Program-made: the position numbers and the translations under genes
Source: Moniliella sp. 'wahieum'
Taxonomy: Eukaryota
Direction: 5' to 3'
Length of the DNA stretch: 64,000 nt
Assembly (NCBI GenBank): GCA_003971905.1
Contig: RSEE01000012.1
Location: forward strand, 434,001 to 498,000
Notes under the pieces: generated by a model
Seen by the model: the letters and a program-made list of their open reading frames with translations, nothing else
Told to the model about the DNA's origin: nothing
Database searches by the model: none
In this document: piece by piece, positions 6,152 through 61,255 of the stretch
Layout of the letters: every line of letters starts with the position of its first letter
Position numbering within the stretch: position 1 is the stretch's first letter

Positions 6152-6577
6152 GGCGGTGGCGGTGAGGTGGAGGTGACACAAGCGCGGAAGAAGGAGGTGG
6201 GGGGGGCGCTAAAGTAAGGAACCTGGGGAAGCAGCCGGACGTACTGAAACCTGGCCATCCATCCGTTCTGCTTACTGCCCCCCGAGGAGCAAACCTACGT
6301 GGAGCCAGTCGAACCATGAACATTTCATCCACCGTACGCATCGATCGATTCAATCCGTCGACGAAGGCAAGCATGGGCCAGCCAGTGGTCACGTGCACAG
6401 TGGTCGCATCAAGCATCAAGCTTCAAGCTTTCAGGGAGGACGCCAGTGCTGCTGCTGCCCCATCGTCGGCGGAATCTGCTGGGGGTTCCGCTGGTGCACG
6501 GCCAGGCCAATGGGCTGCAGCTGGCGGTTGCACCATTGGGCTGCCCACTCGCCCCCTTTCGCTAGGCCTTGGTGAGC

Positions 6578-7985
6578 ATGAGCACCCCCCACAGCCCCCC
6601 GCGCCAGCCGCCGAGGCGGCACCGCCTCCACTTCTCCGCCCGCGCCCCAGCTGGACCAGGCTGTGTCCGAGCTCGTCTCGGGCTTTTCGTCCTGGTGGGG
6701 CGGCGTATCGAAGAAACTTGCTCGGCCGTCGAGACGGCTCGGAGCAACTTGCAGCAGGGCAGCCAGACCTTCCTGGCGGCTGCCAAAGACGAGATCAGCC
6801 GCTTTGAGGCGAGTCTCGAGGAGGCGCCAACGCAAGGCGCGCGAGGAATCTGCTGCTGCTCCCGACGATGCTGACGTGGATGCCGCTGCCGCTGCGCTCC
6901 CCCGCCTCCGGCTCTTCCGCCGCTCCCCCGCCCTGCGGACAAGGGAAGGACAAGGGCAAAGGCCGCGAGGTCTCGCTCGATGAACTTTCAGCCCTCGAGG
7001 GTCCTGAAGGCGCTGCCCGCGCCCAAGCAGCTAGTCTCGGCACTTCGTCGCCGGCGCTCGTGTTTGATGCCGACGGCGACGTTATCTCAGGTGGCGTCGG
7101 CCTACCGCACAAGAGGCCCAGCTAGAGCAGGGATGGAGCAAGGCCTGGAACAAGGATTGGCCCGCGCCCAAGCGCTGGTCAGCAACGTGACCAAGCAGCT
7201 GGGCGACGATCCGCGTGTACAGAGTTTGTCTGCTTCCCTCACCCACTGGGCCAGCCAAGCGGGGGAGCAGCTCAAGCAGCGCACCGCCACCGCCAATGCG
7301 GACCCAGATGCTCCCACACCCGCCCCGGGCGCGGGCAGCTCCTCCGATTTGCTGGCCAGCCTGTCGCGCTCGATTCAGACCAGTCTCCCCACTTGGATTG
7401 GGAGCGAGCAGAGCCAGCGCTGGCCCACAAGGCATGGAGCGTGGCGAAGAGTTCACCAAGGGGTGACGCAGGGTGTGCGCGATTTGGCTGGCGAACTGGT
7501 CCAAGTGACGCCCTTGGACGGAAATAAGGCCAACCCCAGCGCGCTGTCTGCCTCTGCTCTCGCAGCCCCTGGTCTGATATTTGACCCGTCCCGGCGCCTA
7601 CGCCGCCCCGGCAGCCACCCCACCAAATCGCCCCCATTGCCCCTCTCAAGAGCGCAATGAAACACCCGACCAAGACGTTGACCCCTGATCGGCCGCTGCC
7701 CCTACGTCCAGCCTGGCGCCAGCGACTCCCTCTGGGCTCCTACGTCGGGTGTCGACCCTGCTAAGGCTGCGCCCACTGCGGCCTTGGCCTCCTTCCCGGC
7801 CCCGAACCCAAATCGGACGGGTCGGGATGGGGGTTGAGCGATGACGAGGAGGGCTTGCCTGTTTCGGTTGCCCCCGCCGCTTCCGCTTCCGCTTCTGCTT
7901 CTGCTTCCGTCCGTTTCTCACCAGGCCTTGCCAAGCGCCGTGCGTGCCAGTGACAGACGAGGATTCTGACTCGGACTGGGAATGA
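6578..7985 (+). CDS. Hypothetical protein resembling fungal BSD/Dos2-type proteins
   Basis: Coding-like pieces across frames: ELVSGFSSWWGGVSKK, DKGKGRE, LLASLSRSIQTSLP, and an acidic C-terminus EDSDSDWE* (stop 7983-7985). The BSD core itself is not evident. Confidence 0.45.
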
Positions 7986-8316
7986 GGACGATTGACTTGT
8001 GTCGCGAGGCACGTCGCAGACTAGCCCCGCGAGGTGATTCAACGTATAGCCAAACATACTTCTGACATACGAATCTATTGCTGGAACTTGAGATGCAATG
8101 GGTCAAAACCGAGAGGGTCCAGTAAGAAAGCAGCGGGGAGCAGGGAAATGCCAAACATATTGAACAAGCGGCTCACAGGGACAAGGGGACAAGGGGCAAG
8201 GCGGGGGTGAGGGGGGTTGGGGGTTGGGGGGTTGGGGGGCAGGAGCAACAAGGGAGAGATGGGCAACAAGATCCGAGAGGGAAAGCTAAAACAAGCAATC
8301 TAAGACACAGGCGTCC

Positions 8317-9699
8317 TCACTCGCTCTCCAATCCCAACCGCCCACGATGGCAGTCGCAACGGTCATTGGGGTGCGGGTGCAACTGGGCAAAGTAGCTAAC
8401 CACCGCTGGGTCTTGGAAGGCCGAGGGCAAGCCAGAGATGCGCGGCACAAACCTCCCTAACGGCGCAGCATACGCAAAGAAACGAGGCACAGTTCAAATC
8501 GTTTTCCTCCCGCTCCCGTGTGGCCTGCGCTGCTCATCCTCAATCGCCGTCTTGTGCTCGGTAGCAGCGTTCATATCCTTGTTCTCGATCGCCTTGGTCA
8601 CTTCAGCCCAAAGCCGCCGCGACTCGTTCGTCGCCTGCTCTGCCTCGGGTCGCACTGACTTGGGCGCGATCGTAGCGTTGGCGGCGGAGAAGAGGACGCT
8701 TTGCTGACCAGTGATGGTATTCTTGTAGTCCATCTTGGAGGACCACTTGCCCGTCACCTCGCCCACCGTCTGGCCGTTGCGCTTCACCTTACCCTCGATG
8801 GCATTGTAGGTACCGGTAAAGTAGCCCTTGGTCTTGAATTCAACTGTGCACGCCATCTTGGTTGCTGCACACTCAATCAACGACGTATCGCCTAGCTCGA
8901 GCACCATGCTACCAAACAGGATGCCGCGGGCATACATGTTGGGCATCCCAATCACGTACTCTCCATCCTCCGGCCGCTCAACAACACCACCCGGCTGTCG
9001 CCGCCCATGAGGGTGGCGGCACTGTTACCCAAAAACTTGCTCTTGGGTTGCAGTTCGCCATAATCAGCACCTTGTGTTCAGGCGCACAATAAAAGTAGCG
9101 CTGATAGGGGGGTGGTGCGAAACTGGAAGGGAAAACCAGGCCAGAACCACCGCACCGCAGAGTGAAGCGCAAACACAGTCAGTCAGTTACTCAGTCGGTC
9201 AATGCAAAAATGGCAACGCACCTTGCTCGGCAATGTAGTATCCGTGCGAGCCATCGGGGTAGGTGTAGGAGCACTCGAAAAACTCGCCAATACGGGTTGT
9301 AACTGTCAGAGCACAACGAGTCAGTGCGCCGCTTGGATTCAGGTGGCGAGGTACAGGCGTCACGTACGGTTTTTTCACGCCCTTGGGCTTGATGTGCCAG
9401 CCGGCGAGATAGTAGCGCATCACGGCCACAAACCGATCCACAGGGTCCTCGAGCGCCGCAGCGCCAAAGATCAGATCGGGATGCGACATAAAGTCAGTAA
9501 TGCGCTCCAGCATCGAACGCGGCTCGAGCAAACGTCGGCAGCGTCACGCGCGACAGGTCCATCCCGATCCGCAGCTGGCCAATCAAGCTGAGGAGGATGC
9601 TGCCATTCTCCTCGTCGAGTTCTTCCATGTCATCTGCATTGTCCTGCCCATTTGGTGTGATGCTGACTTGGAGGTTCCGAGCAAGCTGGAGAGCACCAT
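8317..9699 (-). CDS. Oxysterol-binding protein homolog (Osh6/Osh7-like short ORP)
   Basis: SILLSLIGQLRIGMDLSRVTLPTF, LEPRSMLERITDF, PKGVKKPY, YIAEQ, MYARGILFG, ESRRLWAEVTKAI, KTAIEDEQR. Introns near 9300-9365 and 9124-9222. Both ends approximate. Confidence 0.9.
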
Positions 9700-11408
9700 A
9701 ACAGCCAGGAGAACACGAGGACAAGCACCGAAAGCGAGACGGGGGGGGGCGGTGGTGGCCGTCAACGAGCTGGCGTCCACCCATTGGCCAGACCAGGCCA
9801 ACCCTTGCGTACGCGCCCGCCGAAAGAGCGCAACCCTAGCGTCACTGGCGCCGCGCACGGCCCCGTGCGGTGTCCGCCAGATAATGGTCACCGGTCCGCG
9901 TCCAGCCAGCACTGAGTTTGCGCCAACTCGTCTCGACGCGTGACGCAACCGCGCACGGTGGCGCCTGCTGGGCCTCCAACGGCAACAGCACGGCTGTCTG
10001 GCTCCCTCGCCGCCTGCCCCCCCTCCCGGGCCTCTCGATGATGTCTGTCTCTCTTCGAGCATCCCGCCGCCAGACGCGGTTGAGGAAGAAGGACAGGCAA
10101 GTGGGGGGGAAAGCAGCAGTATGGAAGATTGCTGGGATTACCACACACAAGGGCAAAAAGACCCACCACGTCTCATTGAAACAGAGAGCAGCACACAGGC
10201 CCCCGCAAACCGTGAACGGCAGTACAGCAAGGATAGTGCCGCGCATGAGGAACGCTGCGGTTCTGTTAGCTCTGGGGTGGCCCCAGCCGAAGCAAGAGAG
10301 TAATGTTCGAAGCGTGGGGCGCAAGACCATATCGGGAGGCGCTCCGAAGCAAAAAAACGGGAGAGACTTGTCTCCGTCGTCGCTATATCCACGTTTGGTC
10401 AGCGCTACTCAAACGCAGGCCGGCATCGGCCTCTAATGTCGGGGACGATGAGGTGGGTTAGCCATGAGTCAGATTCACGCTGAAACAGCAGCAATTAAAA
10501 AAGCCGTCTTCGGGCCTATATGAGATCTGAGATCTACTTGAGATCATGTGATGAGAGTGTGGAAATAGGGCCGGTATTGAGATACACTGGTGTGGTATAA
10601 TCAAGGCTGAGGTTTTCTGTTGGAGATTTACCGAGGGACTGCACCAAGAAGAAGACAAGGGCAAACAGATCCCCAGCAGAGCTGGAGCCACACATGCCCT
10701 CTCTGTCTCACAGTAGTAGATCCACAAAAGGAAAAGCCAAAAAAGAAGCAGCCAAGTGCGGCAGCACATATATCCAGCAGCCAGCATGTCATCCACTATG
10801 CCCAGCACCCAACTTCCCTAGTCCAGATGGGTCCACCACCCCAAGCTCCCTGGAACAGCAGCGCTAGTATACGTTCGTACGAGACCAGCAGGTGCTTCTG
10901 TCCACCAGGCTTTTGCCATGCGATGGTGTTTACAAATGTCTGTTTTCAAATGAAGTGTGGCGCAGCAGCGTCACCGTGACGGGGTGTGAGGCTGGTGATC
11001 GAACGCTAGTGAGACGCGGCCGACCCCCACAAAATCAGCGGATGCGCGCCCCCACGAGGCCTTCTCCTGTTAGTTGGTGCTCAGGCCGAACCATGCCTCT
11101 CCCTGCCATCTCGCCAGCGCATGAGGCCTCAGGACAATGCGACTCAAACGGTATTTAACGGCATTGCTCCTGCAGCGGGGATCACAAACGCTGCTCCGTT
11201 GCCCCGCCCCCGCATCCATTCGCCCCCTTCCTTTGCCCGCCGTCCCGCTGTTGGCTGTCGGCACGGGATGAGCCGGGCTGGGTGGATCCCCGCCAGACGG
11301 GCGGGGAGCATGGTGGACACCGTGTCCAGCGGTATGCAACCAACCGCTCAATGTTATCATTTCGGGAGGCTCCGACCCTGCGTTACGCACCGACCTGGGC
11401 CTACGCGA

Positions 11409-12220
11409 ATGGGCACGGGCCATGGATTCAACAATGAGTGTCTGGAAGCACCGTGGGCATTGCAACAAGCAACTTAGAGGTGATGGGCGTTTGGCGCGTC
11501 GAAGAAAAGGTTTCGAGAAAAGGTCGAAGAAAAGGTCGAAGAAAAGGTCGAAGAAAAGTCGAAGAAAAGGTCGAAAAAAGGAACTTCGCCAAATCAATGC
11601 CCAATGGGATCGATGGCTGGGAAGTTGTGTCGAGTCTGTCTTTGGTGGGAACCATCTCCGGGTTTGGCGGCAATGCGGACCCCAACAACTGTGCACGGAA
11701 GCTTTGTTCTCGCTGTGTCCCAAGAGAAGAGTTTGCCCTACAAACACATTATTGAGCCGGACGGGTACAACATTGGAAGAAACCTCTTTGTCATTGCCGC
11801 CGAACGCGGCGGGTGGTTGAAGGGTGGTACTGGACAGCCACTACCGAATGGGTGGACGGTCTTTTGCCTCCCGGAAACGAAGGTGAGCTTTGCCTTTCCC
11901 ATTTACTCACAGCAGACGCCATATACTGACTTCATGACTCGTGTCAGGATGAACCATGGCTTCGCTCAAGATGGGCGTAAGCTATTCTTACTGTGCGACG
12001 TATGTGTTTTCTCTCTTGCCTTTTCTTGCTGGTGGACCTGGGGCTTACCTCGTATATGTGCTCTTCGGCAGGAATGCGTCCTGGTTCGTGGTCCAAGTAT
12101 ACGCTTTGGCTCTCCCAACTTACCATATCCTTCATCCGAAGCGCAACGTCCTACTCACGTTACCGACAGGCTGCCTCAGATATTCTCGGCCGAATCCCTT
12201 TCTTGTGATTATTGCTGACG
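11409..12220 (+). CDS. Hypothetical protein with VEEK tandem repeats
   Basis: Overlapping ORF pieces, a 12-bp repeat that preserves frame, and donor-like GTGAGC (11883) and GTAAGC (11977). No recognisable domain; start uncertain. Confidence 0.3.
11498..11580 (+). repeat. Tandem repeat (GTCGAAGAAAAG)n, about 6-7 imperfect copies
   Basis: Read directly from the sequence. Confidence 0.9.
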
Positions 12221-18855: not shown

Positions 18856-19955
18856 GCGCTAAGCCCTGGACACGCGCCAATGTATGGCATACATTGCTGT
18901 TTTTCAGTATGCTAATGTCGAAGGACGGTGGGGGAACAATTTTGAGGGATGCAGGACAAGATAGCTGATGCAGTCCATGTGAGGGTACGGGTAAGAGTGT
19001 GCACGAAGTGAATGTGGCCGTTGTGAATGTGGCCGTTGTCGACGCGATCGCTGGTAAGCCATCCGTGATGCTGGCTGGTTGCCAAGATCAGATAAGTAGG
19101 GGCCGTGACGCGTGAGCGAGAGTTGGTTGGGACCGCCTTGGCGCCTTGGCGTGCCTAACCCACCCTTGTCAAGCTCGGTGCCCGCCCGCATCGCTACCCG
19201 AAAAGGCGGTGAGGTATGCCCATCCTCCTTGAGCCGAAGCAGATCCACTCCTTCCTTGGCAGGTCTCTCCTCCTCCTCACTAGACTTGCCATCTCCTCGT
19301 GTGCCCCGCCCCGCCTGCCGAAACCACTTCTCTCTGTTGATAAAAAAATTGACGACCCCTTGGAAGTAGGCACTTGCTGCTCCAACAACATCTCCTCACA
19401 GTGCTTAGGAGGCAGTCAGATTCACTCACCCATCGCCATCAAACTGTTCCTTGATGCTCCAATTTAGGCCCAGACGACCGCATCGCCTACCAGTCCGCCG
19501 ACCTTCACAGGCAACACCTCAGGAGTCCACGCCTCCTCCTCTGGTTGAGGTTTGGATCATCCTTCTTGTTCTCTCTCCAGTCCCCAGTTTCCCTCTTGCA
19601 TCGTCATTCGACTTTGGCTCCGCGTCGTCCATCGAAGTTTCCATCCGCCCGCGGCGCTGGTCGAGCCTACAATCGGCGCCACTCCCTCCAGGACGTGCTG
19701 CGACCTCTTTCTCGCATGCTGCTATCTGTCAGCCAGTCGAGCGCATCTACAATTGCGGCCACAGTTGGTCACGCGACCACAGCGCAACAAATCGAGCCGT
19801 TCCCATCCCGCTCTGGCGGAGCAATCGAAGGCTGGGATTGAAATTGCAGTTCCTGGCCAGGCGGCGCTGGGCCCCCGCTTCAGCCAAGCACGTGTTGCGC
19901 CTACTTGGCCACACTTTTGATCGCCACCACCTCTTTCCTGGTGGCATCCAAACCG

Positions 19956-21721: not shown

Positions 21722-21739
21722 TCTTCTGTCAATTCATTT

Positions 21740-22289: not shown

Positions 22290-23625
22290 AAGCGCTGAGC
22301 TCAGGCTGAGCTGCGGAGGCGTTGAGGCTGCTGAGGCCGGCTGAGATTCAGCTATCGACATTTTGGATTTGCGAGTGCTTGGTCGGCTGTCAGGCGGTCG
22401 CACTGTCGCGCACCGTGTGAGCGCCGTGTGCGGTGTGACTGTGGTGACTTCCCAGTCTACCCGTATGCCCGCGTCCCTGTCTGCTCTACAGCAGCTGACC
22501 AGTTGCTACGGACTAATTGCCCGCTGTCTGCCTGCTCGCAACACGGCAGTGCTGACGATGTGAAACAAGGCAAGCTTTGGTGTGCATGCCTGGGCTTAGG
22601 CGGAGCGCAGGGAGGCAGAAGCTTGCAGGACACCGGCGGACAGACATGATGCATGATGTCACATGTCATCCAGGGCCAAGCACTGCAGGCACCTCGGGGC
22701 ACTCCCCCCAACAAAGCCACCGCAACCCACATGCGTCAGTGGCGTCCGCCACACTAGCCGAGTCACTGGAGTCACTAGTCACTAGTCACTAGTCATGCAA
22801 GTCATGCATCATGCATCATGCATCATGATGCGCCTGCTGCGCCGCACAGTCGGCCGAACTCCGCAACCAATTCCGCTGCGCTGCACAAGCGCGAAAGGCG
22901 CTCAGGAGCTCAGGAGCTCAGGCCCTGTCCTGCCGAGCCACACGCCTGTCACAGGCTGCCGGTCGCCGGCGTGCATGTCAACAGTGGCGCAGGCACGAGG
23001 CACGACTCTCGTTGGTGGTCACCACGTCACCTGCCGCAGTGAGAGAGTACGAAGGCCTGTACGGCAACCCGGCAAGACGCTGTTTGGGTCGGGGCGCGAG
23101 GCGCATCCCGCCAATGTTGGGATTCTCAGCCTGCCAAGCATGTCAGTAAGGTGACTCGGATGGCCTGTGGCCGAGTGACTAGTGACTCTAGTGACTAGTG
23201 ACTAGTGACTAAGCCAATGTAGCCTTGAAGCTTGAAGCTTGAAGCTTGAAACTTGAAGCTTGAGAGCCGGGGGCCTGAGGCCCAGACCCTGAGGTCGCTG
23301 TGCCCTGCTGTGCCCGTGCTGAGATCTGAGATCTGAGGGCGGCTGAGATGCTAGAGGCCCCATGTCCGCGGGATTGCTTGCCCTTGTTGGCTCGGCCTCA
23401 GCCGGAGCCGCACTGTCGCCGGATGCTTTGTTTGCCTCAGGAGAGGCCATGTTCAAGCTTCAAGACTGGCAGTATGCCTTCACGCCTCAAGCCTCACGCC
23501 TGACCTCAGGGCCTCAGGTCCCACGCCTCAGCAGTGCCCCAGCGCCTCAGCGCGGATAAAGCGATAAAGCTGCGGGGAGGCAGCGTCACACACACGTGGC
23601 CCCTCCAATTGATCGATGATCGATG
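22290..23625. promoter_or_regulatory. Dense island of TGA/TCA + palindrome heptamer arrays upstream of the metacaspase gene
   Basis: (TCACTAG)3 22772-22792, (TCATGCA)3 22802-22822, (TGACTAG)n 23176-23210, (TGAAGCT)~5 23226-23263, (TGAGATC)2 near 23320, and TGATCGA near 23610. A regulatory role is inferred from position only. Confidence 0.5.
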
Positions 23626-23715
23626 ATCCCGGCAGTACTCGCCCCCTTCACCTCCTCCCCTCCTCCTCCACCACCCCCACCACCATTACCCTTGCAGCCG
23701 TCTCTCCCCTCCCCC

Positions 23716-25315
23716 ATGTCCTTTCCCGAGCCCTTCGGTGGGTTGACCCCCCCATCGTCCGTACAGCTCGCACAGCCTCGCGCAAACCCAAGGCCCCGTT
23801 CCCAGGCGTCCACCAGGTATGTCGCGCCTCCCTGGCCCCTAGAGACACTCCCCCAGCCGCGTTGCTAATTCTTTCAGCAGAATCATGTCCATGCCTCAGC
23901 CGTTTTACAATGGCCGTGCATATTACGAACCTATAACTCCTTTTGACGTTCCGAGTCCCCGCCACACACTCGTATACCCAGGAGCGAGTGATCCCACCCT
24001 CCAGGCCAAGCCCAGGAGAGGCTACCCCCCTCAGCCAGCGCAACGCCCTCATTCTTGGTATGGAGGCCCTCCCGCCAATACCGGCTATCCCCCACTTGCT
24101 CCCGGCATGCCGCCGGCCCCGCACCTATGGCCATGCCCATCCACACCCCCACGAAAGTGGGGCCGGGTAGAAGGACCCTTGGGCCCACCTCATTACCGCA
24201 AGATGAACGTGCGCTTTGACCGTCCCCCGGAGGTACGATGGAAAACGGATGCGATACGAGTATAGCACGATGACAGGCCGACGTAAAGCGTTACTGATTG
24301 GCATCAACTATGTCGGCTCCAACCGAGCTGAAGGGCTGTTGGAACGATGTGGCCAAAATCCGCAAATTTATTATGCAAGCGGGCGGGTTTGCTGCCAAGA
24401 ACATGGTCATTCTCACCGACCAAAACGCAGACCCACGAGCCCGTCCAACCCGGCCAACATGACAGCGGCCATGCACTGGCTTGTCAAGGATGCCCAACCG
24501 GGCGACTCTCTCTTCTTCCACTATTCTGGCCATGGCACCCAAGCAAAGGCAACTCAAGGAGATGAACGTGAGTCATGTTCCTTTGTGATATTGCGATCCC
24601 TGTCCTGTCGTACTAATCCTAGCCTTTCCCCATCACACAGCGGATGGCCTGAACGAGTGTATTGTTCCCTCGGATTATATTAAGAATGGCCTGATGGAGG
24701 ATGATGAGTTGCATGCCCTCATGGTGCGCCCTCTGCCTGTGGGATGCCGCTTGACCGCGTTGTTCGATTCGTGTCACAGTGGCACGGTGCTGGACTTGCC
24801 TTATTTACTCGGCTTCAGCAAGGTTTCGGAGCCGACAGTGGCGGCTAACGTGGGATATGGCTTGGAACAGGCCATCCGTGCGTACACCCACGGTAACATC
24901 ATGGACGCTGCCAAGGGCGTTGTGGCGACAATGACCAAGCGCAAGCCGAGCAGCGAGCGCGGGAGATTACCATTCGCACCCGTTCATCAGGCGCAGACGT
25001 GATCATGTTCTCGGGGTGCAAGGACAGCGAAACCAGCGCCGACACGGTGGAGGCGAAGAAGGCTACGGGTGCCTTGAGCTACGCTTGGATTGCTGTGTTT
25101 GAACGATGGCCCATATCACTTACCTCCAACTCCTCAATGCACTGCGCGATGAGCTCGTTGAGCGGTTCCACCAGAAACCACAGGTACGTCTTTTGGGCAA
25201 TTCAAATTATATGCATTCCTCAGCGTATCTAACCTTTTCTGTTCCCCAATTTTTGTACGGAATTTTAGCTCTCCACCTCGCATCATATGACTTTGAACAC
25301 ATGTTCACCATTTAA
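23716..25315 (+). CDS. MCA1: Type I metacaspase
   Basis: Pro-rich prodomain, TGRRKALLIGINY, catalytic His in FHYSGHG and Cys in DSCHSGT, SGCKDSETSAD, QKPQ. Introns at 23817-23879, about 24568-24640 and 25184-25268. Confidence 0.92.
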
Positions 25316-41400: not shown

Positions 41401-44400
41401 GAAGTCGCTGGGAGAAAACACAGGAGATTGAATGTCGATACTTAGAAGGAGCAAGTGGGTCAGCTCGACCACATGGATGGGAGAGATCCCACCCTTCCGC
41501 AAGTAGCTTGACCAGTTTTGGTTTAGGTTCTTGTCAAAGATGCGGTACTGCACATCATACGGCAGCAGGTTCTCGATCTCAACCGGAGCTCGCAGTTAAG
41601 GCTGAGGTGAGGGTAGATCCTGCTGCGAGGATCTTGACGATTGTAGAGCGTGTAGCATTGGAACCGGAATGGCGCCTCGCCATCGTCTTCGCTGACACAT
41701 GCAATCACCCTCGATGACTTGGAGACGAGGTCGCGCCACCCGACAATATCCTCTGACCACTTGTAATCAAAGCCAGGGTCGGGTCGAATTCGAATCTGAT
41801 TGTAGTAGGCCGCTTCAATCGGGACGGGGCAAGTTTCCGATGGGGCCATCTTGTACGGCTCACTGTTGGGGTTGCCATTGTCATCGACGATCATCATCTC
41901 GACTGGACCAAAGTCAGGTTCTCAATATTGAATGTGGAGCGGAAGGTGATGATCTTGACATTGTCTTGCAACCGCACCTCGTATGCCAGTTGGTGACCCA
42001 CTTTGTCCAACTTGGGCGTAGATTGAGGACAAAGACGCCTTCATGGTCGACCGCGATGTGCTTTACTCGATCCCAAGGCATATCGTCAATGTGTAATGAA
42101 CAAGTTGTCTGCTGGGATGTCGTAGACTGACGAGGAAAAATAGTTAGTCTTCAAGAACAGGAGACACGGTGAGCGTACCTCGCGCATAGTCTTCCAATCG
42201 TCGAAGCGCCAAGGAACGGAAGATCCGTCAGCCAAGTGAGTAGGGGTGGGCTTGACCCGCTTGTCATGGTGCTCAGCCCAAACACTGATGCGGTACCCAG
42301 TGCGATTGACGATTTTGAATGGTGCGGCATTTCGAGACGCCTTGACTCGTTGGTTTTCGTCCGAGTAAACTCCGATCGCCAAGGAGATAGTGTCAATGAA
42401 AGTGGAACTGACGTTCACCTCCAGACGACGGTTGGACGAAATGGTCTTAGAGACGTTCTGGTCTGCCCCGATCGCGTCGCTCGTGATGCCGAATTCGAAG
42501 TTCCATGGATCGATAAGCGGCTCCCAATGAGAGCGTGACAAGTTATAATAGTTGATACGAAGTGGAACGGCGGCCGAAACGCGAAGGTCGCTGCTCCAGT
42601 CTTGAATATTAACTGTGGTCTCGGTCACGTTGAGATCCAAGACGGGGAGACCATGCAGGTCCCCAATAACTACTACTTGCAAGCCACTGAAGACGACAGT
42701 AAGCACTTCCTTGGAAACAAGAAGATGAGGGGGGTAAGTTCGTCGCTCTGCCCCCCACTGCTAGTGCGTCTGACCACCGCACCATCCATGCCGTTGTCTG
42801 CATCCTCGCTTGAACGGCGGGCGTCGGGCAAGTTTTGCTGGTTTGGCTCGGAGTGGTCCTTGCTGGTTGAGGCGGACTTGTCAGGCGACTGGTTGGAGAG
42901 CTTGATGGCCTCGTTCACGACCGAACTGATCAGGCGTACGTCACGTAGGGCAATGCGCAGCACCAGCGGGTCCACCTGCACATCGATGCTGGTCATTTGC
43001 TTCATCTCACTGCTCCCGCTATCCATTGACAGCGTCATGTTGAAGTTGTCCAGCAAGCGTACTGTGTCCTTTGGGGCGGTCATCCGACACATGAACATGC
43101 CAAACTGGTCGACTGTCAAAGCCAAGACCACTTGGTGCGAGATGAGCACTTGCTTGATCGAGAGCACGATTGCCTCGCTGTCGGACTTCTCTGGGTTGGC
43201 GAGCAGGATAATCGTAGGGGCCACCAAGTTGACCCGGTAGGCAAATGAAGGTTCTACCACATCGACAGCGTTGGGTTCTCCCGAGGACTTTGGGGGAGGG
43301 GGGGGGGGTAATGCCTGTTGAGGGCATAGGCGAGTCAGGCGAGTTTGCAGGTTGTTCTTGCTCCCCTTCACTCGAGAAAGGAGAGGTCCAAAAGTTGAGC
43401 AAGGCGAACATGGGGTCGAGAGCAAAGATGATCTTGGGCGAATCAATGGTTACCAAAAACAGCCCACCTCCCTCACTAAACGCAGAATAGGACAGCATGA
43501 ACTGGTACCCATCATGCTTGACTGCAGGAACAATCTCGCGGAACTTGGTTTCTTTGTGCACCCGTGTATCCCGTACCGTGAGAGATTTGAGAGCCAACTC
43601 TGCTTCCATTGACTGGTCGTTCATCCTCTTGAGTTTGAGTTCATGTCGTTCAAGGCAAACCGAGCCAGACTGGCGTTAGAAACCGCATCCTGCTCTTGGG
43701 AGACCCATTGTAAATCTCAAGTTGGATCGCATGAGCAGCGAAAGAAGGTCTAACGTGGTATGCGCGTGCTTGGACCGCTTGTCCGACCCGGAATGGCTTC
43801 ATTCTTCTCTCCATCGGTAACCGATGGTGGTGTGGGGGAAGCGGCTCGGGGCGAACTAGAAGCGACAACCATTGGGGGCACAGTGGAGGGAGCGTGATCA
43901 TCTTGGACGGCGCGCGCTGAGCGAAGGCGCGGGATACTGCGCGACAGTTCGATAAGGAAACAATACTGCTCTTCCGTCAGGCGCATGGAGACATCCGACA
44001 GGGTGGCTTGGACCTGGGTGTCAGGATGATCCTCGTCAAACACACTCGATGTCCTGGTCTGGATCATGTCGATGGCCAAGTTGACGTCACTGATCATTTG
44101 CAGTCGCTCTCCTTGTCATTTTCATGGAAAATCCGAGACACTAGACGAACGTGGCGTACCCCCGCCGTGATTTTGGTGATGAGCCCCTCCCCCTCCTTGA
44201 CAGCATTTTTGTGGGGTTCGCCGTAGCACCAAAAAAGGCGTTGTGTGCATAAATCTCGCCCAAGTTGGCAATCATTACATCCTTTTGGTCGGAAGAGCGG
44301 GGGAGCACAACAATGGGAGTCTTGATGATCACGTCGTAATGCATCTTGCTTGCCTTATTAACACTTCGGCTTCCTGGTTTGTCGTCGCCGGAGCACGAGT

Positions 44401-47400
44401 AGCCTGCTGTTCGCGAACAATCCGGCTTTCATTTCAGCAAACTCGCTGAAAAATTGAAAGAGATCTTGGAGCGGCTCTTCAGCACTGTAAAACGAAGAGA
44501 GCCTGTGCGAAGCCAAATGGACGAGTCGTAACCCGGATAGACATCGGCGTCGAGAGGATCAAACGTCTCGTAGGCCAAGTCAGCCAACTCATCCCCTTCA
44601 ATCGCGAGCACCTTAGCAAACTCAGGATGCCGTAGTTGCGTATTTGGTTGTCCACCAATGAAAGAGACCCTAGACGTGCTGCCACCCGCATCGTCGTCCC
44701 GCGCATCAGCACGGCCACATCTGCCGTCGAGAAGGCGATTGTGGCTAGTAGGTCTCCTTCGTGATTGAGTCGCACAATGACACCATTAAGTTTGACTCGT
44801 ACCTTCATCTTGGACACGCGTTCCGAACTCTGCACAGACGATGGCTCATCAGACGGGACCTTGGCAATGGCGTCATCCTCCTGGGTGGGTCTAAATTGCC
44901 GCGCTTGTGAAAGTCTAGTGTACAGTGTGAGTGTCTGAAATATAAAAATGGGGGGAAGAGAACACAGTCACGATCCACTGATAGAATGTCAAGATACTCT
45001 CGCGTCCACATGAAGTTGAGTGTCGATAGCTCGATGTTCACGGACTGGTCGATACCCTCAAACTGGCTTTGGAAAGCTGGGTGGTCAGCCGAAACCGAAT
45101 TGTAGGTGACTGCGACCAAGTCCTTCTCCGACTTTGCTCCTTGACGCTTCCTGATCTCCCAGAAGCTGAGAGGTCATCAACCAACGGAACATGCCATGGG
45201 GACGAGGAATGATCTTGTCCTCCAAGTCCACAGAACGAAGGCGAACATCCACGTTTAGGTTGTAAGGATAAACAGATACACCAACATGGAAACCCTCAAA
45301 TACGGCATTGACCAAAACCTTGTCGGGAAGGGAGGCATCGGGATCGCTCTGGGAAATCTGCCCCAATAAACGGTCGACTTGGAAACTGAGTTCGAATGAT
45401 TTCTGGTCAGCATTAATCCGATCGGACTTGTCGTCCTCAGCATCCTCAAAGTTGTCATCTCCCTCGTCTGGGTTGCCTTCATCATTGTCTTGATCTACCA
45501 AGTATTCCTCGTCATTGTCACGCTGAGCGCGAAGATGTCGAACCTGTTCCACTCTTCTTTCAGCTTCTTCCGCGAACCGTAGGTTGCGATGCTGACGGGG
45601 TCGCAGGAGTGGCTGAAGATGTATCGGCACCTTTAGAACGAGGCATGATGATGCTGATAAACTGATGAGTGTCTTGTACTTGCGATCGGAGAAGTTGACC
45701 TGCAAAGTCGGGAGGTGGCCCGTCACTTTAAATTTGGTCAAGTTGGGCGCTTTGGGAAGAATGCAGTTGTGGATAGTGAAGTTGAGGTTGATCCTCTCAA
45801 TCAGGTGAGTCTTTCGGATATCAGGCGTGCCTCCTCCAGCCTCATGTGTGACAAGACTGTGAAGACAGGCTTCCAGATCGGTTCCCAGAAGGAGCTGGGC
45901 ATCGTCGAGTTTGACGATAAAACGATCGTACATCAAATCCTCTAAGCGCGATAGTCATCCGCAGTGTACTGTTGGTTCTGTTTGGCACGCACATCAGCCA
46001 AGGCCTGCTTGTCAGCAAAAATGCTCTTGACGCTAATTCGACCCGCATCAAGCACCATGTGTTGTCCATGGAGAGTCGTGACATCCTCGGGCATAATGAT
46101 AATGGGAGCTTTGACGTCCACGTTCATGTCGACTGTTTTGTGGTTGTCCAAGGCGTTCTCCAGCCCAGCCCGGGTCTGCTTGCGAATTCCCTCGATTGTA
46201 TTGCTAGCGGCATCAATCAAAGCCCCGATAAGCTCTAGCTCCGACTCGGCGGGCTCAAAGAATGCCGACACGGCCTCGACGTAGCCGCGATGATAAATGA
46301 TCTCCGTAGAGCCCACGCGGAGGGTGAGGCCATGGTCCGCACGCTCGTCCAATGGCTTGTACTCATACTTGACAAAAAAGAAAGGATCGCCTTTTGTCGT
46401 ACTTGGCGCATCCCTGAGACAATTGGATCGGATTGGAGGAGCGGTGGGGGGTTGGGAACTGCTTGGGGCTCGCTTACCAACTCGAGATAGTCATCCGCCT
46501 TGACACGCACGATCTCAGGGTAAACCGAATTAGGGGTAGTCCCATCAAGGATCTTCATATCGCCAAGCGAAATGGTAGTGTCGAGGTTATCCACCCGCTT
46601 GGTCAACTCGGCCTGGAGTCCCGAAAACAGGACACTGACCACATCCGTACCCTTTTGCTGGCTCCGGAGAGTAAATGAACCGCGCGGTGAAGCAGAGTGG
46701 TGACATGCAACTTGATCGCATCTCGAGGCAAATCCAACAAGACCATGTCGTCATTCTTGGCGGTATCGTCCCAATCAATTGCATCATATAGCTCTTTGCG
46801 CTGCTCATCGTTGAGCTGAATGGCAGTGTCAGGAGTCTGCTGGTTTTGTGTTGGATCCGCCGCCCCAAAGCCAGCCCATCCACCCCCTGCTGCGGTTTGG
46901 CTTCTTGTTCCTTCGTCTCTACCTGACCCTGGGAAGCGGCATGTTCTTGCTCGCGGTGCAACTCGCGGCGGGCAATGGAACGGTAAAAGCGAATGTCCTG
47001 GTAATCCAACTTGCGCTCGAGGGCATCAAGCTGTTGGACCACTTCATTAGTCTGGGCTCCGGTGTTTGTGCCTGCTCAGGGCGCGAAGTAGTTCTTTTTC
47101 CTTGAACAAGCGAACATAGGTCTTGCGGTCATCTCGACGCTGCTTAAGGTAGTCCCAGTCCAGCGGTAATGGCGTTGATGCACCTCATCCAACACGGCGC
47201 GGATGGCGAACTGAAATTGGGGCCTTCGAATGTCTCTTCCAAGCTGAGCAGGAGTGGGGCGGAAACGGCGGTAACGGGCTTGGCGGGTGTAGTAATGAAA
47301 TAGATCGATGACCGAGATCATATCGCGGTACTGCTCGTCGTCCAGAGCGAAGCCCAAATCTTCAAACAGCAGTTGCACATCCAATTTAGGAATCTCGTTG

Positions 47401-48275
47401 GTGAGTGTGTTGCGCATGATCAATCGCCCAATCCCTGAGACAGGCTTCAGGATGAATTGGTGTGAAGGGAGATGGTCTGCGCGTGCAATTAGCTCCTGGA
47501 AGCTGTCATAGGCCAAGACGGGAGTGGAGAGGTCCCCCGCCTGCTCTTTGCCGATAAATTCGCTGTCAGTGTCCCGTAAAAGGACAAACTGTCGAGACGA
47601 GCAACCTTGTGAATGCCATTGGCACTGTTCTGAATAAAGGTCGGCTTCCAATTCTCGTCGGTCGAAACAGCCGAGAACTCGGAAAGCGTGATTCCAGCGC
47701 TGAAGGGGTGGAGGGGGTTGGAAAGGAGTCCTCATACCGGATATGGATATTGCGGACCGTGATCTGAAGATTGTCCAAGATTTTAGTCACGAGGGATTGG
47801 GTGAAAGACTCTTGTTGAGCGTCGCTCCCCATCTGGTCTCGGCCAATGAGCTCAGCGCTGGCCAACTTGCTCTGTTTGACTGCCTGAATGCGCTCATCTT
47901 CCTCGGCCTCGTCAACGTCCACGCTGGCTGATCGGGGCCGGGCAAGAACAAACACGTTGTCAATCAGCACGCGTACAGGCTTGCCCTTGAGGTTGGACCA
48001 GGGGATACTGAGGGTGAGCTCGCCGAGAAAGCCTTCCTGAACATCAATCGGCAGATGGAACTTGTCGAGTGCTGATTTCTTGAGCTTGAGTCTACGACAC
48101 AGTTAAGGCAGGATGCCTCGTCAGAAGGAATGGCATACAATGCAAGCGCGGTAACGTACCCTCGGAGTTTGACATCGCCGCTCCAAATGCCAACGTTGAG
48201 CTGGTCGGTGTTGAGGTTGTCAACGTAAGCCGAGAGGACGCTGTTGAGGACAGTTGCGACGACGCCCTCAAGCAT
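38414..48275 (-). CDS. VPS13: Bridge-like lipid transfer protein Vps13
   Basis: Chorein N-terminus [21 protein letters not shown]...[67 protein letters not shown]. About 9.9 kb with many indels and a few introns. Confidence 0.96.
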
Positions 48276-48419
48276 GGCTGGCAAAAGCCGTGCGTATCAA
48301 AGGATGAGTGGGGGGGTTCAGCAGCGTAGGCGCAGCGGTGTTTCACAGGCGGTAGCGGGGGAGAGCGGGGAGAGGGGGGAGAGGGGGGCGAGGTGGTGGG
48401 GTGGGGGTGGTGGGCTGAA

Positions 48420-49060
48420 AGCTGAGATGCGCCGCCCATGCCGATTGCCAGCTCCGATGGCTGACGGGCCTGACATGTGACATGTGACGATGACGCCTGA
48501 TGCGTGATGCATGACGCATGACGCCCCTGACCAGCCTCTGCTCCGAGCCTGAGCCTGATCTGAGGCAGGAGGCTGAGATCTGAGTCTGGGAGTGCGACCA
48601 GTGCGACCAGGCCCGCGCACCCTCAGCTTGACGCCTGACGATGAGCGAGCCCAGCCCAGGCCAAAGCTGCATGCAGGGCTGACGTCACGCGTCACCATCA
48701 CGCGGCACTGCGCTGCTGCCGGCCGAGGGCGGCCAGGGGCGACGGGCAACCCTGTTGGCAGAAGGACATCGATAGGGTTAGGCCTGGTGGGATGCGGGGG
48801 GGGAGGTACGCGTGAGCCACACCCACTGTGGGCCATCACGCTCATGCGTCATGGGTCAGGCACATGTCAGCATGTCACATGTCCGTGCCATGCTGCGCAC
48901 GTCACATGATGATCACCAGCGCGTCGCGCAGAGTTGCAGGAAATGTCCAATTGAAATCGCGGAACTCGAAGGGCCACCCTGGCCACCGTCAACACCACTC
49001 GTCACCGCGTCACTAGTAACTAGTAACTAGTAACCAGTACCTGCTTCCGGCCGGTCACCG
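48420..49060. promoter_or_regulatory. VPS13 upstream spacer with heptamer arrays
   Basis: (TGACATG)2 at 48471, further TGA-spaced units to about 48590, TCACATG near 48875, and TAACTAG units 49013-49033. Confidence 0.45.
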
Positions 49061-50900: not shown

Positions 50901-51898
50901 CTTGGGCTGGGACTTGGGCTGGGTCGTGTGTGAGTCAATGTCAAAGCATCCGTGCGTGCCATTCAAAATATGCTGGGAGTTGTTGGTCGTTGGTCGGCTT
51001 CAATATTCAGTAGGCCTCCAGGCCTCACCCTCACATGTGACTGTCACAGATCCTCACGCCGCAGGAGCGCCAGGAGGGGTGCGGGGTAAAATAACACTCA
51101 GTACTCAGTCGGCCGGTCAGGTGACCGGTGTGACCGGTGACCGCCGGAACCGGTAACGCACTTGTGAACTCATCAATGTGATCGATGATTATCACATCCC
51201 TCATGCCATGCAGGACAGGTGTAGGTTGTGATGGATGATCGATTCGATGATGCAGGTGCAGGATGCATGATCAGTGATGCAAACAGTGCGTCGTGTGATG
51301 CATGACATCATGCAGTTGGTCGAGTGGGGAGGTCATCACGCATGACGTCAGCGCGCCGCGAGTACACCCGCGGAAATGAAGGCAGATGTTGGCAGCGTTG
51401 AATATTTGAATGGATTTCGGCAAGATCTAACATGCGGGTGACGCGTACGCGCGTAACGAAAGCTGGCTGCGAAGATGGTTTCTAGTACGACTGGTCCCAT
51501 ACTATGTGAGGGATCAAGTACCGCCGCGAGTGCACCATCCCACCCTCATATCCGCGAATACTCTGCTAGCGTACACGGCATCTCTCTCGCCTCTTCTCTC
51601 TGCACCTGCTGGCTGATGTGGGGAGTCAATACGGTCAGTTACATGTGTATTAAGATCTCTATGATCGCTCTTTTCGCATCCTGTACCCTAAGGTAACCCC
51701 GGTATCGACCACCAAAGGTCATGCATCACTTCCAAGGCTGACTCTTTAACACTGTTTCGTATCTTTCTTCCCGGCATCTATGACGCGAAGAACTCCGAAA
51801 AATAAGACCCACATTTTATGATATCTATCCTCAGGCCGTCGTCTCAGAGAAGGCCTCACTGGGTCCCTCACTCTACTTCTACCTACAGGAGAAGAGTT

Positions 51899-52165
51899 TG
51901 TTGAGGGTACTGCTAGGGTTCTCTCCTGCGCGGCCCTCAATGGATCAGACGCTCGCCTAGCCGAGCGGAAGCGTTCCGCTCGCAGGCCGCGCACGCCCTG
52001 CTTCGCTCCATCTCCCTTCTCTCTCTCCTTTCTCCTTCCCTTCAGACGTTGCTTGAAGACTTGTGGCTCACCACTTTGCCTTCACGACTTGTCTGAAGGC
52101 TGCTTTGCAGCTGATCCATGGATTGCGAGTGCTCCCAAGTCGCACTCTAGTAGAGTTTGACAACA
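51899..52165 (+). mobile_element. LTR-like dispersed repeat, copy C
   Basis: TGTTG...CAACA ends. Adjacent CCCACTCCCC (52166-52175) is a polypurine tract on the minus strand. Confidence 0.75.
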
Positions 52166-52630: not shown

Positions 52631-53040
52631 TCAGATCCATTATCGTGGTCTAGCCACCTCTAACCGAGTCAGGTCCATGATGCATGATTCGTGGTCTAGC
52701 CGCAGTATATTTTGACTGTGTGTGATTCACGATCGACACATTTCACAATTGGAACGAGAGCTTCGCCTCTCAGCATCCTGTTTTAATTGTACTGCGGACT
52801 ACGCCGCCCGCAGTTAAATTACTAAACGCAATATCGATCCTCAACATTGGCAGTGGTGTGCGGGCGCCCACAATATACTCGTTCAGAGCATCATTGAGAA
52901 CCCTTCTCGCTCACTCTCGAACAACGCCGATGTTATAGCGGGTATGAAGAGTCCTTTTCTACTCTCCACTGCACCCTTTTCCGCACCTTGCAACCCAACT
53001 GGCACCCTCACACACACACTGCCCGGCACCCACATATACT

Positions 53041-54020: not shown

Positions 54021-54559
54021 TGTAAACAAAATAAGCGATTACTGTGCGCGGATACATGATCCTGATGCACATTTCGGGGAATGCGTGCATACTGACGAGT
54101 CATCTTGAATCTCCCCAGTCGCACCCCATTCCGACCAGATGGTAACTGCCTGTATGGGCTTCATATTTCGCGAGATTGAGATCGTGCTGCGAGGGTCCCA
54201 GAATCTCGGCGTGGTCGACTTGGCGCGTAAAGGCATCGCAATGAGCAGTAGTAAGTGACGCGTATTATCACACGCACAAACGGGAAAATCTCAGATCTCA
54301 GATTTCACACGATCTCACGAAGGATATATATCTTTTTTTGATCACCTTCGATTGTGGTCGCTACTTGTATAGAATGCCGCAGAAAGAGCGCGGCGGACCA
54401 CGAGGTATGTCACCGCCATACTGTCACCAGTGGTGCCCTCCTGAATGAACGCGTGAATACACGTATGTGTGAACCACCAAGATAGCAAGGGCAGTAGCGA
54501 TGCTAATACCAGTCACCACTATCCGATTCTTTCTCCCACTCCCTCACTATCGCTACTAT

Positions 54560-58060: not shown

Positions 58061-58496
58061 CCCGGAATCGCGGGGTAGTCTGGTGAGGCGGATGTGGGGT
58101 CAATAATACTGGCGCAACAGGGAGATGGCATAAACCGCCACAGGCCCAATCACCCCGGAGAGGCTGTGTGGCCGACCACAGGCTGATTTACGCAAGCTTA
58201 TGTGGGTACCCGAAAAGAGAGGAAGTGAGAGGGACGTACGGGTTATTCTGTTTGTTCTCAAAAGGAGAGATATGTGGTGGTGGGGAGGTGGTGGAACACA
58301 GGAGGAAAGGGCGGCGTGGAGGTTCAAGAAGGCGTGAAGGTTGGGGAAGGTGGAAAGGGAGATGATGAATGCCGTTTTCTCGGTTATATGTGCCCGCGCA
58401 CATAAGTATAGGTTCTTTCTACTGGGTCACTGGCAGTAACATCGAGACACTATTTCTGCGGTACGTCAGTGGTACGTCTCCCGCATCTCTCGTCCG

Positions 58497-58545
58497 TCAC
58501 GTGTCACATGTCACGCGTCACAGCTGTCACATGTCACATGTCACA
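58497..58545. repeat. TCA + palindromic spacer array upstream of the GH16-AT3 gene
   Basis: TCA-CGTG, TCA-CATG, TCA-CGCG, TCA-CAGCTG, TCA-CATG, TCA-CATG in tandem. Confidence 0.85.
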
Positions 58546-61255
58546 GTCCAGTCCGGAACCTGGACAAAGGCCGAGATCTGAGATGACCGAGACCTGGAGG
58601 TTCACTTCATCGCATCCATCATGTGTCACAAGTACAGTTCGGCGGCGCCCTTTCGCTGGTTGTGAACGATGTGATGAGAACCCGATGGACGTGAACGTCA
58701 TTGGTCGCTCGTTTAACCACGGAACAGCTCGTGTGTGCACACACGCGTGCACAAAAAACATATAATAGTAAGCTATACCAAGCAATTACTACTGGCTGTG
58801 GCCCGCTGCGGCGCTAGGGTCGGCCTAGAAAGATCACACGTGCACCATGCATAAGGACTAAGATGCACAGGACGGCCTTAGTCTTAAGGTACTGCAGAAG
58901 GTGCAGCATACTGCAAAATGCGTATAATGGCTGAGGTACATAAGGCGTGGCTGTGGCTGTAAGGCCTAAGGCCGAAGGCCAGGGTCGATAACGCATCAAC
59001 AGTCACTTACTAACTATTAGCATTAGTAGTGACTAGTGCCTAGTGACTATAGTATACCTACTACTACCACTGTGGTTTACACGTTTATTTTTTTGACATG
59101 TTTCCAACATCAGCTTCATTAATCCTCTCGGGTGTGTACCGCATCTATAGTAACTATATTTGATGGAGGAGACGGGATGTGCCAGGGAGTGTCTGTGGGA
59201 GCCCTCAGCGCGCGCCCGATGAGGCTGAGATATCTAAAAGAGTGCTTGCCCATCTCGATCGTAGCGTCCCCCCGACCCCAATATAAGCCCCAAGCACGTT
59301 TGCCTGTCGAGATGAGGCATAATTTTGAGCGATGGCTTCCATCGCCTGTACAGGTATGTGTTGACCAAAATGTTCACCAAAATAGAGTAGTGAGATTCTA
59401 ATGGTTAAACGTTAAACATTAAAATGCATAGCAATGAGATGCATGCTAAAATGTGCTAATGATGCTAAGATCATTAATTGATCGATGAATGTTTTCTCAG
59501 CTTCTCCCAGGATCTCAGATCTCAGCAAAGAAACGCTGAGGCTCAGCTTTGAAATTTGAGTTGAGACGTTGAGGGTTACCGGTTACGGGTTAACATCGAG
59601 GCTCAGCGCGCTCAGCGAGCGCTCAGCCGCTCAGAAAATGCCCGGATGCTCACACGAACCACTGCGAAGCCGCCGATCAGGTCCACCAGGGATGATCGAT
59701 GATCGATGTCCATATTCGGGCCGGGTGTATCGAACGTGTATCTGCGAAAAGTGGAGTATGAACACGATGCATGATATCCGATGCATGACTGTTCGATAAT
59801 CGATGAGATCATCGATTATGAGGATGTGAGATGATCGATGAGTGGGATGTGAGATCGATGATTTTTTGACAGCCATAGCATTGCATGACGCATCATGCAT
59901 CATGCATCATGCAATGCATCCTAATGCACGCCTCGATGACCTTGCCGACGGAACAGCATTGATAAATGTCGTCCTAAACAAACTGACACTACTGTCTTTT
60001 TGTCCCCACGTTGCAAATATATAAATGTCTGAGGTGGAGAACATTTTCAGGACTTGTACTTAGTAGAGGAATAATAGATCCGTGGTGTGCTCCGTACGTG
60101 TTGATGTTGGATGGGACACAGCCTGCGGGCCAGTCCGTCTCGAGGCATGTGTGGTCCTTGGAGGAGTCATGCAATAATCACCCCAAAATAGTGATGTGCT
60201 GGTTGCGGTCCATAAGCACTTACGTGAATATGTCAGAGCCGTTAACTTCTCTCGTTAACACCACTGTGCCTACAAGGACTTAGATCTCACGACAGAACAA
60301 AAACCAAAAAAAAGGTATCTCATACAGACCTCATTGCTGTGTGGGTCTGTGACGTGGTTAGTTTCTTGGGCTATGGAACTCCTACATAGCACTACTAGAT
60401 CTGAAGGGGGAAACAGCCATCATGATGGGCTAGGACGTTCGGACTGGCCACACTCAAGAAAAGCCACACCTAAAAATACATTTCTATCCGGGGTCCATTT
60501 TATATACGTCAACTAGCAATAAGAAACAAACATTTTGTCAAGTGTGGTTACCATGAACGTTGTGAGGCACATGCGGGAATGATTCAGGATGGTTTTCCTT
60601 CGAAACACCCTTTCTGCAGAGCCTGGCATTATAGGTCACAATGTCTTTCGTCCTTTTTTATTGCCCCTGAGTTTTCCAATACGATATGTCTTCTCTGCGG
60701 GACCGCCATCACTTCCACTCTTCCGCACTTTGGTGGTGGTCGTGCGTAAAAAGCTCGTTGGTGTATAGATCTTATTTCAAGCACTCGGGCCATGCTGCTT
60801 GCGACCAGTTTTAGTTACGACTTCTTTTTTCAATCATCTTTTGTTGCTGTCTCCATTACTATAGCCAGCTACACCATTTCGTTTTTCTTTTTATCGAGTC
60901 CATTTATCGCTCACCACTGCGTATAGCAATTCGGCTCTCATTCTCATCGCCCTGCACAAAAGTGAGTTAATATATGGGGATGCCGCAATTTGTTGGAGGA
61001 ACGGCATTGTATATAGATGCGCGATCCTAGCATGAGAAACATAATATTATGTTGGCTTCATGACGGGGTAACCGATAACATATATGGAAAACAGAAGACG
61101 TTTAGGCGGACCAGAAGATTCCTTTTCATTTAAGAGCCTGGGAAGGCGTATGACACCAGTTTGGCCGTGGAACCAACAGAGAAAAAATGCGGCGGGGAGG
61201 GGGGGGGATGATGACGTGAGAGGTGGTAAGTTGACCTCACAACTGGGTCAGTGAC

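Follow-up and report, generated by a model that had tools for sequence, protein, structure and literature searches.

Palindromic heptamer units in the intergenic DNA of a smut-lineage fungus as probable transposon excision footprints

The window analysed here is a 64,000-nucleotide stretch of contig C12 (G000:C12:434001-498000) in an assembly of 69.5 Mb and 223 contigs. A Pfam search of 61 open reading frames in the window identified genes for a porin, CCDC47, a class II tRNA synthetase, a metacaspase, L7Ae, a gamma-glutamyltranspeptidase, VPS13 and a sugar transporter. The nearest named matches of the CCDC47 protein are from Tilletiaria (50%) and Ustilaginales (42-47%), and the host is therefore placed in the smut lineage of the basidiomycetes. 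The spacers between these genes carry 7-bp units, often in tandem, in which a T-N-A trinucleotide, mostly TGA or TCA, alternates with a self-complementary 4-mer. The data presented below indicate that these heptamers are very probably healed empty sites, the excision footprints of a cut-and-paste transposon of the CMC type that would leave RAG-like blunt hairpins on the flanking DNA. The likeliest agent, an attribution made with less assurance, is a 4.85-kb EnSpm/CMC-like family with CTCACTG ends, or its relatives, which would be moved in trans by a transposase.

The heptamer rule and its genomic distribution

The first-pass annotation of the window had proposed that TGA or TCA is followed by a palindromic 4-mer, and the rule is borne out. 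A palindromic spacer occupies 32 of 61 TGA-N4-TGA and 23 of 46 TCA-N4-TCA pairs in the window, giving 55 such pairs compared with 2.0±1.5 (maximum 7) in 30 local dinucleotide shuffles, and the example arrays are present where they were reported or a few bases away. Of the 510 pairs in forty 10-kb stretches (400 kb), chosen by fixed position on other contigs, 280 have a palindromic spacer. All 16 possible palindromic 4-mers occur as spacers within 664 kb. The effect is specific to a gap of four bases, with palindromes in 335 of 617 pairs, compared with 49 of 191 at gap 2 and 78 of 327 at gap 3, both close to the 1-in-4 chance level. It is likewise confined to the direct orientation and to T-N-A anchors; the 335 of 617 for TGA..TGA compare with 34 of 148 for TGA..TCA and 36 of 222 for TCA..TGA, the latter two counted on both strands. 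An inverted-duplication model, which predicts TGA..TCA, was rejected, such sites being about a tenth as frequent as direct ones. The central base of the anchor is almost free (133 TGA/TCA to 37 TAA/TTA, against a background of 17,768 to 6,185). The TAA that had been noted as an occasional anchor forms nine palindromic pairs in the window compared with 0.17 in the shuffles, and the rule is accordingly broadened to T-N-A. Triples repeat the same spacer in 61 cases and join two different palindromes in 18, and arrays reach seven copies. The 308 loci detected in 600 kb, against 1-4 in shuffles, extrapolate to ∼36,000 genome-wide (large contigs only). In 33.7 kb covering two distant loci of fungi (36% identity), one of five TGA-N4-TGA was palindromic, too few for any inference about relatives.

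The units avoid coding sequence, as had been observed from the window alone. None of the 65 window sites falls within 7,698 bp of Pfam-matched coding sequence; one lies within 19.5 kb of gene spans, and 55 lie within 6.3 kb of upstream stretches picked by eye. When 600 kb were divided into fifths by coding-likeness, counts dropped from 158 in the least to 7 in the most coding-like fifth. A rough gene map gave 0.02 loci per kb in gene blocks, 0.17 in convergent, 0.38 in tandem and 0.63 in divergent spacers. This distribution bears on the view, also raised in the first-pass annotation, that the units are a selected symmetry or shape code read by a general promoter or chromatin factor. Strong intergenic clustering (variance twice the mean) and the excess in divergent spacers (15 loci per 848 TNA, compared with 4 per 852 in convergent spacers; p=0.011) are what such a code would produce, whereas tandem spacers hold similar numbers in their 5' and 3' halves (12 and 11 loci, respectively, on a rough annotation), and open-chromatin targeting together with purging from exons would yield the same map. 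As an origin the code is not supported, because the flanks dictate the spacers, off-period and non-palindromic products are enriched, and units are private to single long terminal repeat (LTR) copies, as described below; it is considered very unlikely.

Several of the Pfam-matched genes in the window are divided among reading frames. Frequent frame changes in conserved genes, at 23890-25320, 33460-34855 and 38705-48300, are consistent with assembly indel errors, and frame breaks in the transposase discussed below may in part be errors of the same kind. An assembly or sequencing artefact could draw on these frame changes and on the 8-24 one-base gaps that separate copies of the resident element. 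Flank-dependent gains of seven bases, avoidance of exons, sharing of units among related repeats and the match to the duplications of resident copies are all unlike base-calling error, and an artefact is given hardly any credence.

Spacers copied from the flanks

The relationship between spacer and flank was described by writing the target as abTNAcd and each product as (i,j), the number of bases inverted (+) or trimmed (-) on the left and right copy, respectively; symmetric targets were excluded. Among 166 isolated dimers the spacer matches only the left flank in 51, only the right flank in 48, both in 36 and neither in 31, and the modes of the match lie at exactly two bases, (2,0) and (0,2). 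The spacer is a copy of the two bases beside the site and not a free code. The earlier statement that each junction forms an odd palindrome does not hold, as 99 of the 166 dimers match one flank only (by at least two bases) and the 18 mixed triples join different palindromes. On asymmetric TGA targets the main products are (+2,-2), with 116 cases compared with 25 when flanks were shuffled, and (-2,+2), with 127 compared with 25; seven control trimers gave at most 17 in the ±2 cells.

The rarer products are equally informative. Observed against flank-shuffled counts were 22 and 0.3 for (+2,-1), 16 and 0.8 for (-1,+2), 19 and 0.5 for (+1,0), 15 and 0.3 for (0,+1), 7 and 0.3 for (+1,+1), and 9 and 0.7 for (+3,-2), while products that retain the whole duplication reached 14 and 0.7 for (+2,0) and 12 and 0.3 for (0,+2). 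Together with their mirrors these minor classes stand ∼5- to 70-fold above the shuffled level. With one to three inverted bases, they match the opening of hairpins followed by end joining on a 7-bp duplication. The odd-centred form typical of hAT elements was at background or control level (9 and 12 of 451), as were the 5-bp and 9-bp geometries. In 23 arrays of mixed spacers the outer flanks are those predicted from left and right hits on a single target on both sides in 12, on one side in nine and on neither in two. The array at window 22770-22827 is an example, in which one ag-TCA-tg target is represented by three CTAG units, one (+2,0) unit with the whole 7-bp duplication and three TGCA units. 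A Tc1-type footprint, with filler from the element ends, was rejected, since the filler follows the flank.

Paralogous repeat copies display the sites before and after the event, the empty abTNAcd standing opposite the filled abTNA-cdd'c'-TNAcd or abTNA-b'a'ab-TNAcd. In one LTR family (30 copies, 16.9 kb, ∼80% identical) the pattern occurs at 14 sites, opposite which a single TNA is the most frequent partner allele. The 14 comprise eight distinct combinations of site and product, some shared by descent, and the predicted flank match is present in 13 of them; one target carries the left-end product in one of the copies and the right-end product in two more. Units of +7 arise privately in single LTR copies. 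Unbiased pairwise calls returned 58 insertions, 23 of at least 5 nt, of which 12 were 7 nt long and seven of these fitted exactly. Younger LTR families gave no sites in 4.9 kb of matches (some redundant) and one in 6.9 kb at ∼86% identity. Within a segmental duplicate shared by contigs C17 and C62 several +7 gains lie on the C17 side, including the conversion of a single TGA into a three-unit array.

These alleles bear on two explanations that need no transposon. Slippage is favoured where repeats fold into hairpins, as in CNG repeats, and ordinary slippage of self-complementary 7-mers would account for the 61 same-spacer triples and for arrays of up to seven copies. Once a dimer has formed, slippage may well lengthen the array. 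As the origin of the dimer it requires, as does any plain 7-bp duplication, a flank match (left plus right) of at least four bases, which is present in only 62 of the 166 isolated dimers; the modes at (2,0) and (0,2), the enrichment for T-N-A units only and the non-palindromic empty alleles are equally at odds with it. Slippage is refuted as the origin by the asymmetry of the empty alleles and is compatible with a role as extender; the chance that it explains the pattern is slighter even than that of a selected code.

The second explanation, a template switch or snap-back at nicks or stalled forks, supposes that TNAcd is copied, folds back over two to three bases and re-primes seven bases upstream on T. 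It yields the same main product, with the T of TNA as one base of microhomology, and would fit a genome with few resident elements in which no active transposase was found. It leaves unexplained why the geometry is restricted to gap 4, why two-ended products such as (+1,+1) occur, why products that use no microhomology, (+2,0) and (+1,0), are still specific to TNA, and why there is an element that duplicates the same class of 7-mer. The first-pass annotation had also considered a mutational footprint that builds inverted micro-duplications at TCA, and was right about the kind of process; the generic template switch that it named is improbable. Transposon insertion followed by excision through hairpins is preferred, because there is one fixed 7-bp geometry and an element with matching 7-bp duplications.

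Parsed as excision products, the scars of the window (recorded without strand) range from single units to dense clusters. Two (+2,0) products, each a full 7-bp duplication with two inverted bases, lie at 1512-1523 and 1899-1910, and a TCA array with an AGCT spacer at 6409-6425 is parsed as (+1,-1) followed by (+2,-2). Single scars at 10521-10530 and 19106-19115 have the spacers GATC, copied from the right flank, and CGCG, copied from the left. Upstream of the metacaspase gene two scars, TGCA and CATG, occupy 22647-22668; beyond the mixed array described above come a CTAG array that includes a (0,+2) product (23174-23211), an AGCT array of 5.7 copies with one mutated unit (23224-23263) and a cluster at 23320-23626, made up of a GATC array at 23320, AGCT at 23453, (-1,+2) at 23506, (+1,0) at 23557 and a TCGA array at 23610. 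A CTAG scar anchored on TAA (27988-27997) and a single CATG scar (31615-31624) are followed by a cluster in the divergent spacer between the L7Ae and gamma-glutamyltranspeptidase genes (32416-32888), which contains TCGA, a mixed TAA-CCGG/CTAG array, (+2,-1), (-1,+2), GTAC and a five-unit TCGA array. The cluster upstream of VPS13 (48471-49033) comprises a CATG array, (+1,-1), CGCG and a TCA/TAA-CTAG array, and the stretch 51098-51409 a GTAC scar, (+3,-1) plus CCGG at 51122, and (+2,-1) at 51399. Scars with TGCA (single, 52678-52687) and GATC (54291-54300) spacers precede the complex TCA array at 58497-58545, for which changing palindromic spacers had been reported; the footprint model accounts for its CATG units and gives no exact parse of the CGCG and CAGCTG units. 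The last cluster (58960-59909) carries TAA-GGCC, TAA-ACGT, GATC, AATT, TTA-CCGG, (+2,0) at 59603, TCGA and a TGCA array. The unit at 59603, previously listed as a GCGC-type array near 59600, has a 6-base spacer. A further scar with an ATAT spacer, at 63928-63937, lies beyond the range first annotated.

Other repeats are also present in the window. Copies of a 251-bp solo LTR with TGT..GCA/GTA ends and 5-bp duplications are found at 25984-26234, 51899-52150 and 2670-2930, and the repeat is abundant, with 535 candidates in the genome. The copy at 25984-26234 was considered as the scar-making agent and rejected, being a solo LTR with 5-bp duplications. Another LTR-like repeat occupies 26431-26819, and at 11498-11581 ∼7 copies of a 12-bp tandem repeat, outside the heptamer rule, lie within overlapping long frames. 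The window transporter (61333-63233) is ∼75% similar to a sugar-transporter region that forms a near-perfect inverted duplication at L047:1-3443 and 5847-9288.

A resident CMC-like element

A pattern search of the genome for the element end motif gave 412 matches compared with 238 for the control. Among the 100 of these 412 matches that were listed there was one facing pair, on contig C11, which delimits a 4,849-bp element with inverted ends of 78 bp and the termini CTCACTG..CAGTGAG. Homology searches added four further full copies (97-98%), one partial copy and one telomere-side end, making seven resident loci; over 4.85 kb, 14-47 substitutions separate the copies, besides the one-base gaps mentioned above. 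The excess of 412 over 238 far exceeds the ends of the CTCACTG-ended family, and none of the matches in the 19 other sampled stretches proved to be an element end. The end motif had no exact match in a metagenome collection. Four of the five two-ended copies (G000:C35, C34, C23 and C29) are flanked by exact 7-bp nnTNAnn duplications with a central TGA or TCA, and the single ends at C149 and C66 also adjoin nnTNAnn, a match expected by chance at 0.036 per site. At C34, C35 and C29 the duplication is one 7-mer or its complement, with different flanks further out. At C149 (L173:380-779), close to the start of the contig, the element end runs directly into telomere-like TAACCC repeats. The C11 copy is not independent evidence, as the pattern search had led to it.

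A Tnp2 profile that combined 28 Tnp2 relatives with four in-genome frames matches all five element copies (E about 3e-9 to 8e-9), and the C(2)C and H(3-4)H motifs (CxxC and HxxxH) are visible. An LTR fragment occupies the place of the N-terminal catalytic domain, and the resident element is read as a non-autonomous derivative. By its protein remnant it is filed as CMC-like and not as canonical EnSpm, as the Tnp2-like motifs are present and the termini and duplication length deviate.

Elsewhere in the genome the Tnp2 family search identified two loci, one on C17 above the cut-off and one on C34 below it; inverted ends were not detected around either Tnp2-like gene. The C34 gene, at about 513260-516870 (L118:3259-6872, minus strand), is near full length, sits amid housekeeping genes 8 kb from a resident element and is a candidate domesticated transposase. 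It spans profile positions 30-871, a score that is circular because the gene was in the profile alignment. The C17 gene lies in the segmental duplicate (about 556000-559300; G000:C62 278711-286554; 85-93%), which also contains an ATPase-like frame, and the C62 copy has stops. One version of events is that the end-less gene of C34 or C17 encodes a domesticated RAG-like transposase that mobilizes a few non-autonomous elements through open chromatin, a standing promoter mutator whose scars would supply new palindromic factor sites. It draws on the two genes, the absence of detected inverted ends around them and the location of the scars, and appears unlikely, if somewhat less so than the template switch. 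If true, it would be genomic evidence that EnSpm-type enzymes cut via blunt flank hairpins.

The scars may also have been made by the same mechanism in the hands of another group that generates 7-bp duplications, hAT7 or Kyakuja (KDZ). Such duplications have been reported for both in basidiomycetes (PMC12730594), and the target bias of the resident family differs from that of the scars. An hAT source is expected to leave odd-centred palindromes, which are at background here. Family searches of the genome for KDZ, hAT and MULE returned no match (no KDZ candidates and two hAT candidates were scored), a weak result, as the controls were silent for KDZ and hAT. There is only a small chance that either group is the source.

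Proposed footprint mechanism and comparison with known systems

A sequence of steps that would produce the observed spectrum can be proposed. The element inserts at ab-TNA-cd and duplicates the seven bases, as the resident copies display. Excision would then seal each flank as a blunt-tipped hairpin, in the manner of RAG and Transib, which is suggested by the even-centred inverted bases. A host nuclease would open the hairpin mostly two bases beyond the tip; the product is seen in the scars, and the enzymes are presumed. Opening at +2 would leave 4-base overhangs, the other strand starting at the T of TNA, so that retention of one overhang and loss of the other during end joining would give the main product, in which the net gain is seven bases and two TNA enclose a self-complementary 4-mer. 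An identical sequence would result if the hairpin were opened at +3 and the ends paired on T. Left and right hits on one target would give two different spacers. Repeated hits on a scar, probably helped by slippage, would build arrays, because each scar carries two new TNA targets. As a +7 frameshift would be purged from exons, where the units are depleted, scars would accumulate between genes. Among the enzymes that open hairpins, Artemis acted mainly at +2 on each of the 17 hairpins tested, cutting 11 of them at +1 and three at +3 as well (PMC2175297), and hairpins on the flanking DNA have been reported for hAT, MULE, Transib and RAG (PMC5499845).

Several observations weigh against this interpretation. 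In the product spectrum, the (+1,-1) class after removal of overlap with the main classes is 18 compared with 7, and 11 compared with 8 (two other bases pooled); plain duplication (0,0), at 38, is within the control-trimer range of 7-89; the 31 dimers that match neither flank have no place in the scheme, and the CAGCTG unit near 58520 is unexplained. For the element, the C11 copy (L145:1742-6590) has nnTNAnn on both sides, the two words differing, and hence no duplication; two insertions may have recombined there, or the copy may mark a rearrangement junction. The profile search did not detect the N-terminal catalytic domain of the DDE core in the element copies, and no full-length autonomous copy was found, a genome search with the remnant protein returning only the six known loci. 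The seven resident loci contrast with ∼36,000 extrapolated scar loci, and an element paired with a scar was not seen at any one locus. The inner flank base is A or T in 14 of 16 resident half-sites compared with 42% of scars (p=2e-4, the half-sites not being independent), so the resident family may not be the sole or main source of the scars. De novo scans of sampled loci for inverted-repeat elements with nnTNAnn duplications found none that was convincing. Members of the CMCT clade make duplications of 2-5 bp (CNIRT6 3 bp, CNEST 2 bp; PMC12730594, PMC12810828), compared with 7 bp around a central TNA for the resident element. Finally, neither flank-hairpin nor footprint data for EnSpm elements were found in the literature searched, which excluded most subscription papers, and the available part of PMC8195511 has nothing on footprints. 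This evidence lowers the attribution to the resident family more than it lowers the footprint interpretation itself. The same searches turned up no account of the heptamer pattern or of the putative Ustilago heptamers mentioned in the first-pass annotation; for the latter, the available part of PMC2219887 yielded only a primer with such words.

Excision footprints as such are well known; what is new is the scale, the building of arrays and the 7-bp EnSpm-like lineage. If the interpretation is correct, tandem repeats can originate in transposon repair rather than in slippage, and tens of thousands of occasions on which a hairpin was opened and ends were joined are preserved across the genome, allowing a basidiomycete's repair spectrum to be deduced with no experiment. 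There would also be an EnSpm-like lineage whose duplication is 7 bp long and centred on TNA and which, by extension, cuts in the RAG/Transib manner; this bears on the chemistry common to the clade ancestral to RAG. A very large past load of transposition could, moreover, hide behind a handful of surviving copies. Motif finders would report such palindromes as promoter elements, and caution is warranted.

Several known systems resemble parts of the pattern. Slippage microsatellites share the head-to-tail arrays of 7-mers, the difference being that the first dimer here consists of five copied and two inverted bases rather than seven contiguous ones. The Tc1/mariner footprint comprises the duplication, bases of the element end and the duplication again, and so resembles the scars in having direct repeats around a short palindromic filler; that filler is constant and derives from the element ends, whereas here all 16 palindromes occur and follow the flank. 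Ac/Ds and hAT7 elements leave hairpin-derived palindromic footprints, with one or two dominant products in a fungus and 7-bp duplications in hAT7 (PMC5873905, PMC12730594), but the Ac/Ds palindrome is centred on the complement of the adjacent base and is odd (PMC5873905), in contrast with the even-centred form described here. With EnSpm/CACTA elements and the CMCT clade, including CNIRT6 and CNEST, the resident element shares Tnp2-like remnants with C(2)C and H(3-4)H motifs, short subterminal repeats and non-autonomous copies (PMC12730594, PMC12810828). CNIRT6 ends begin with CACTG (PMC12810828), which is contained in the inverted ends of the resident element, although most members of the clade terminate in CA..TG (PMC12730594) and the resident element in CT..AG. 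The closest likeness is to the P nucleotides at V(D)J coding joints and to the flank-hairpin excision of RAG1/Transib, where one to three even-centred inverted nucleotides derive from the flank, opening at +2 dominates with +1 and +3 as minor positions, and the other end is trimmed (PMC5499845, PMC2175297). Here, by contrast, a 7-bp target duplication forms the flanks, very many genomic sites carry the product in fixed form, and the candidate enzyme is Tnp2-like rather than Transib-like.

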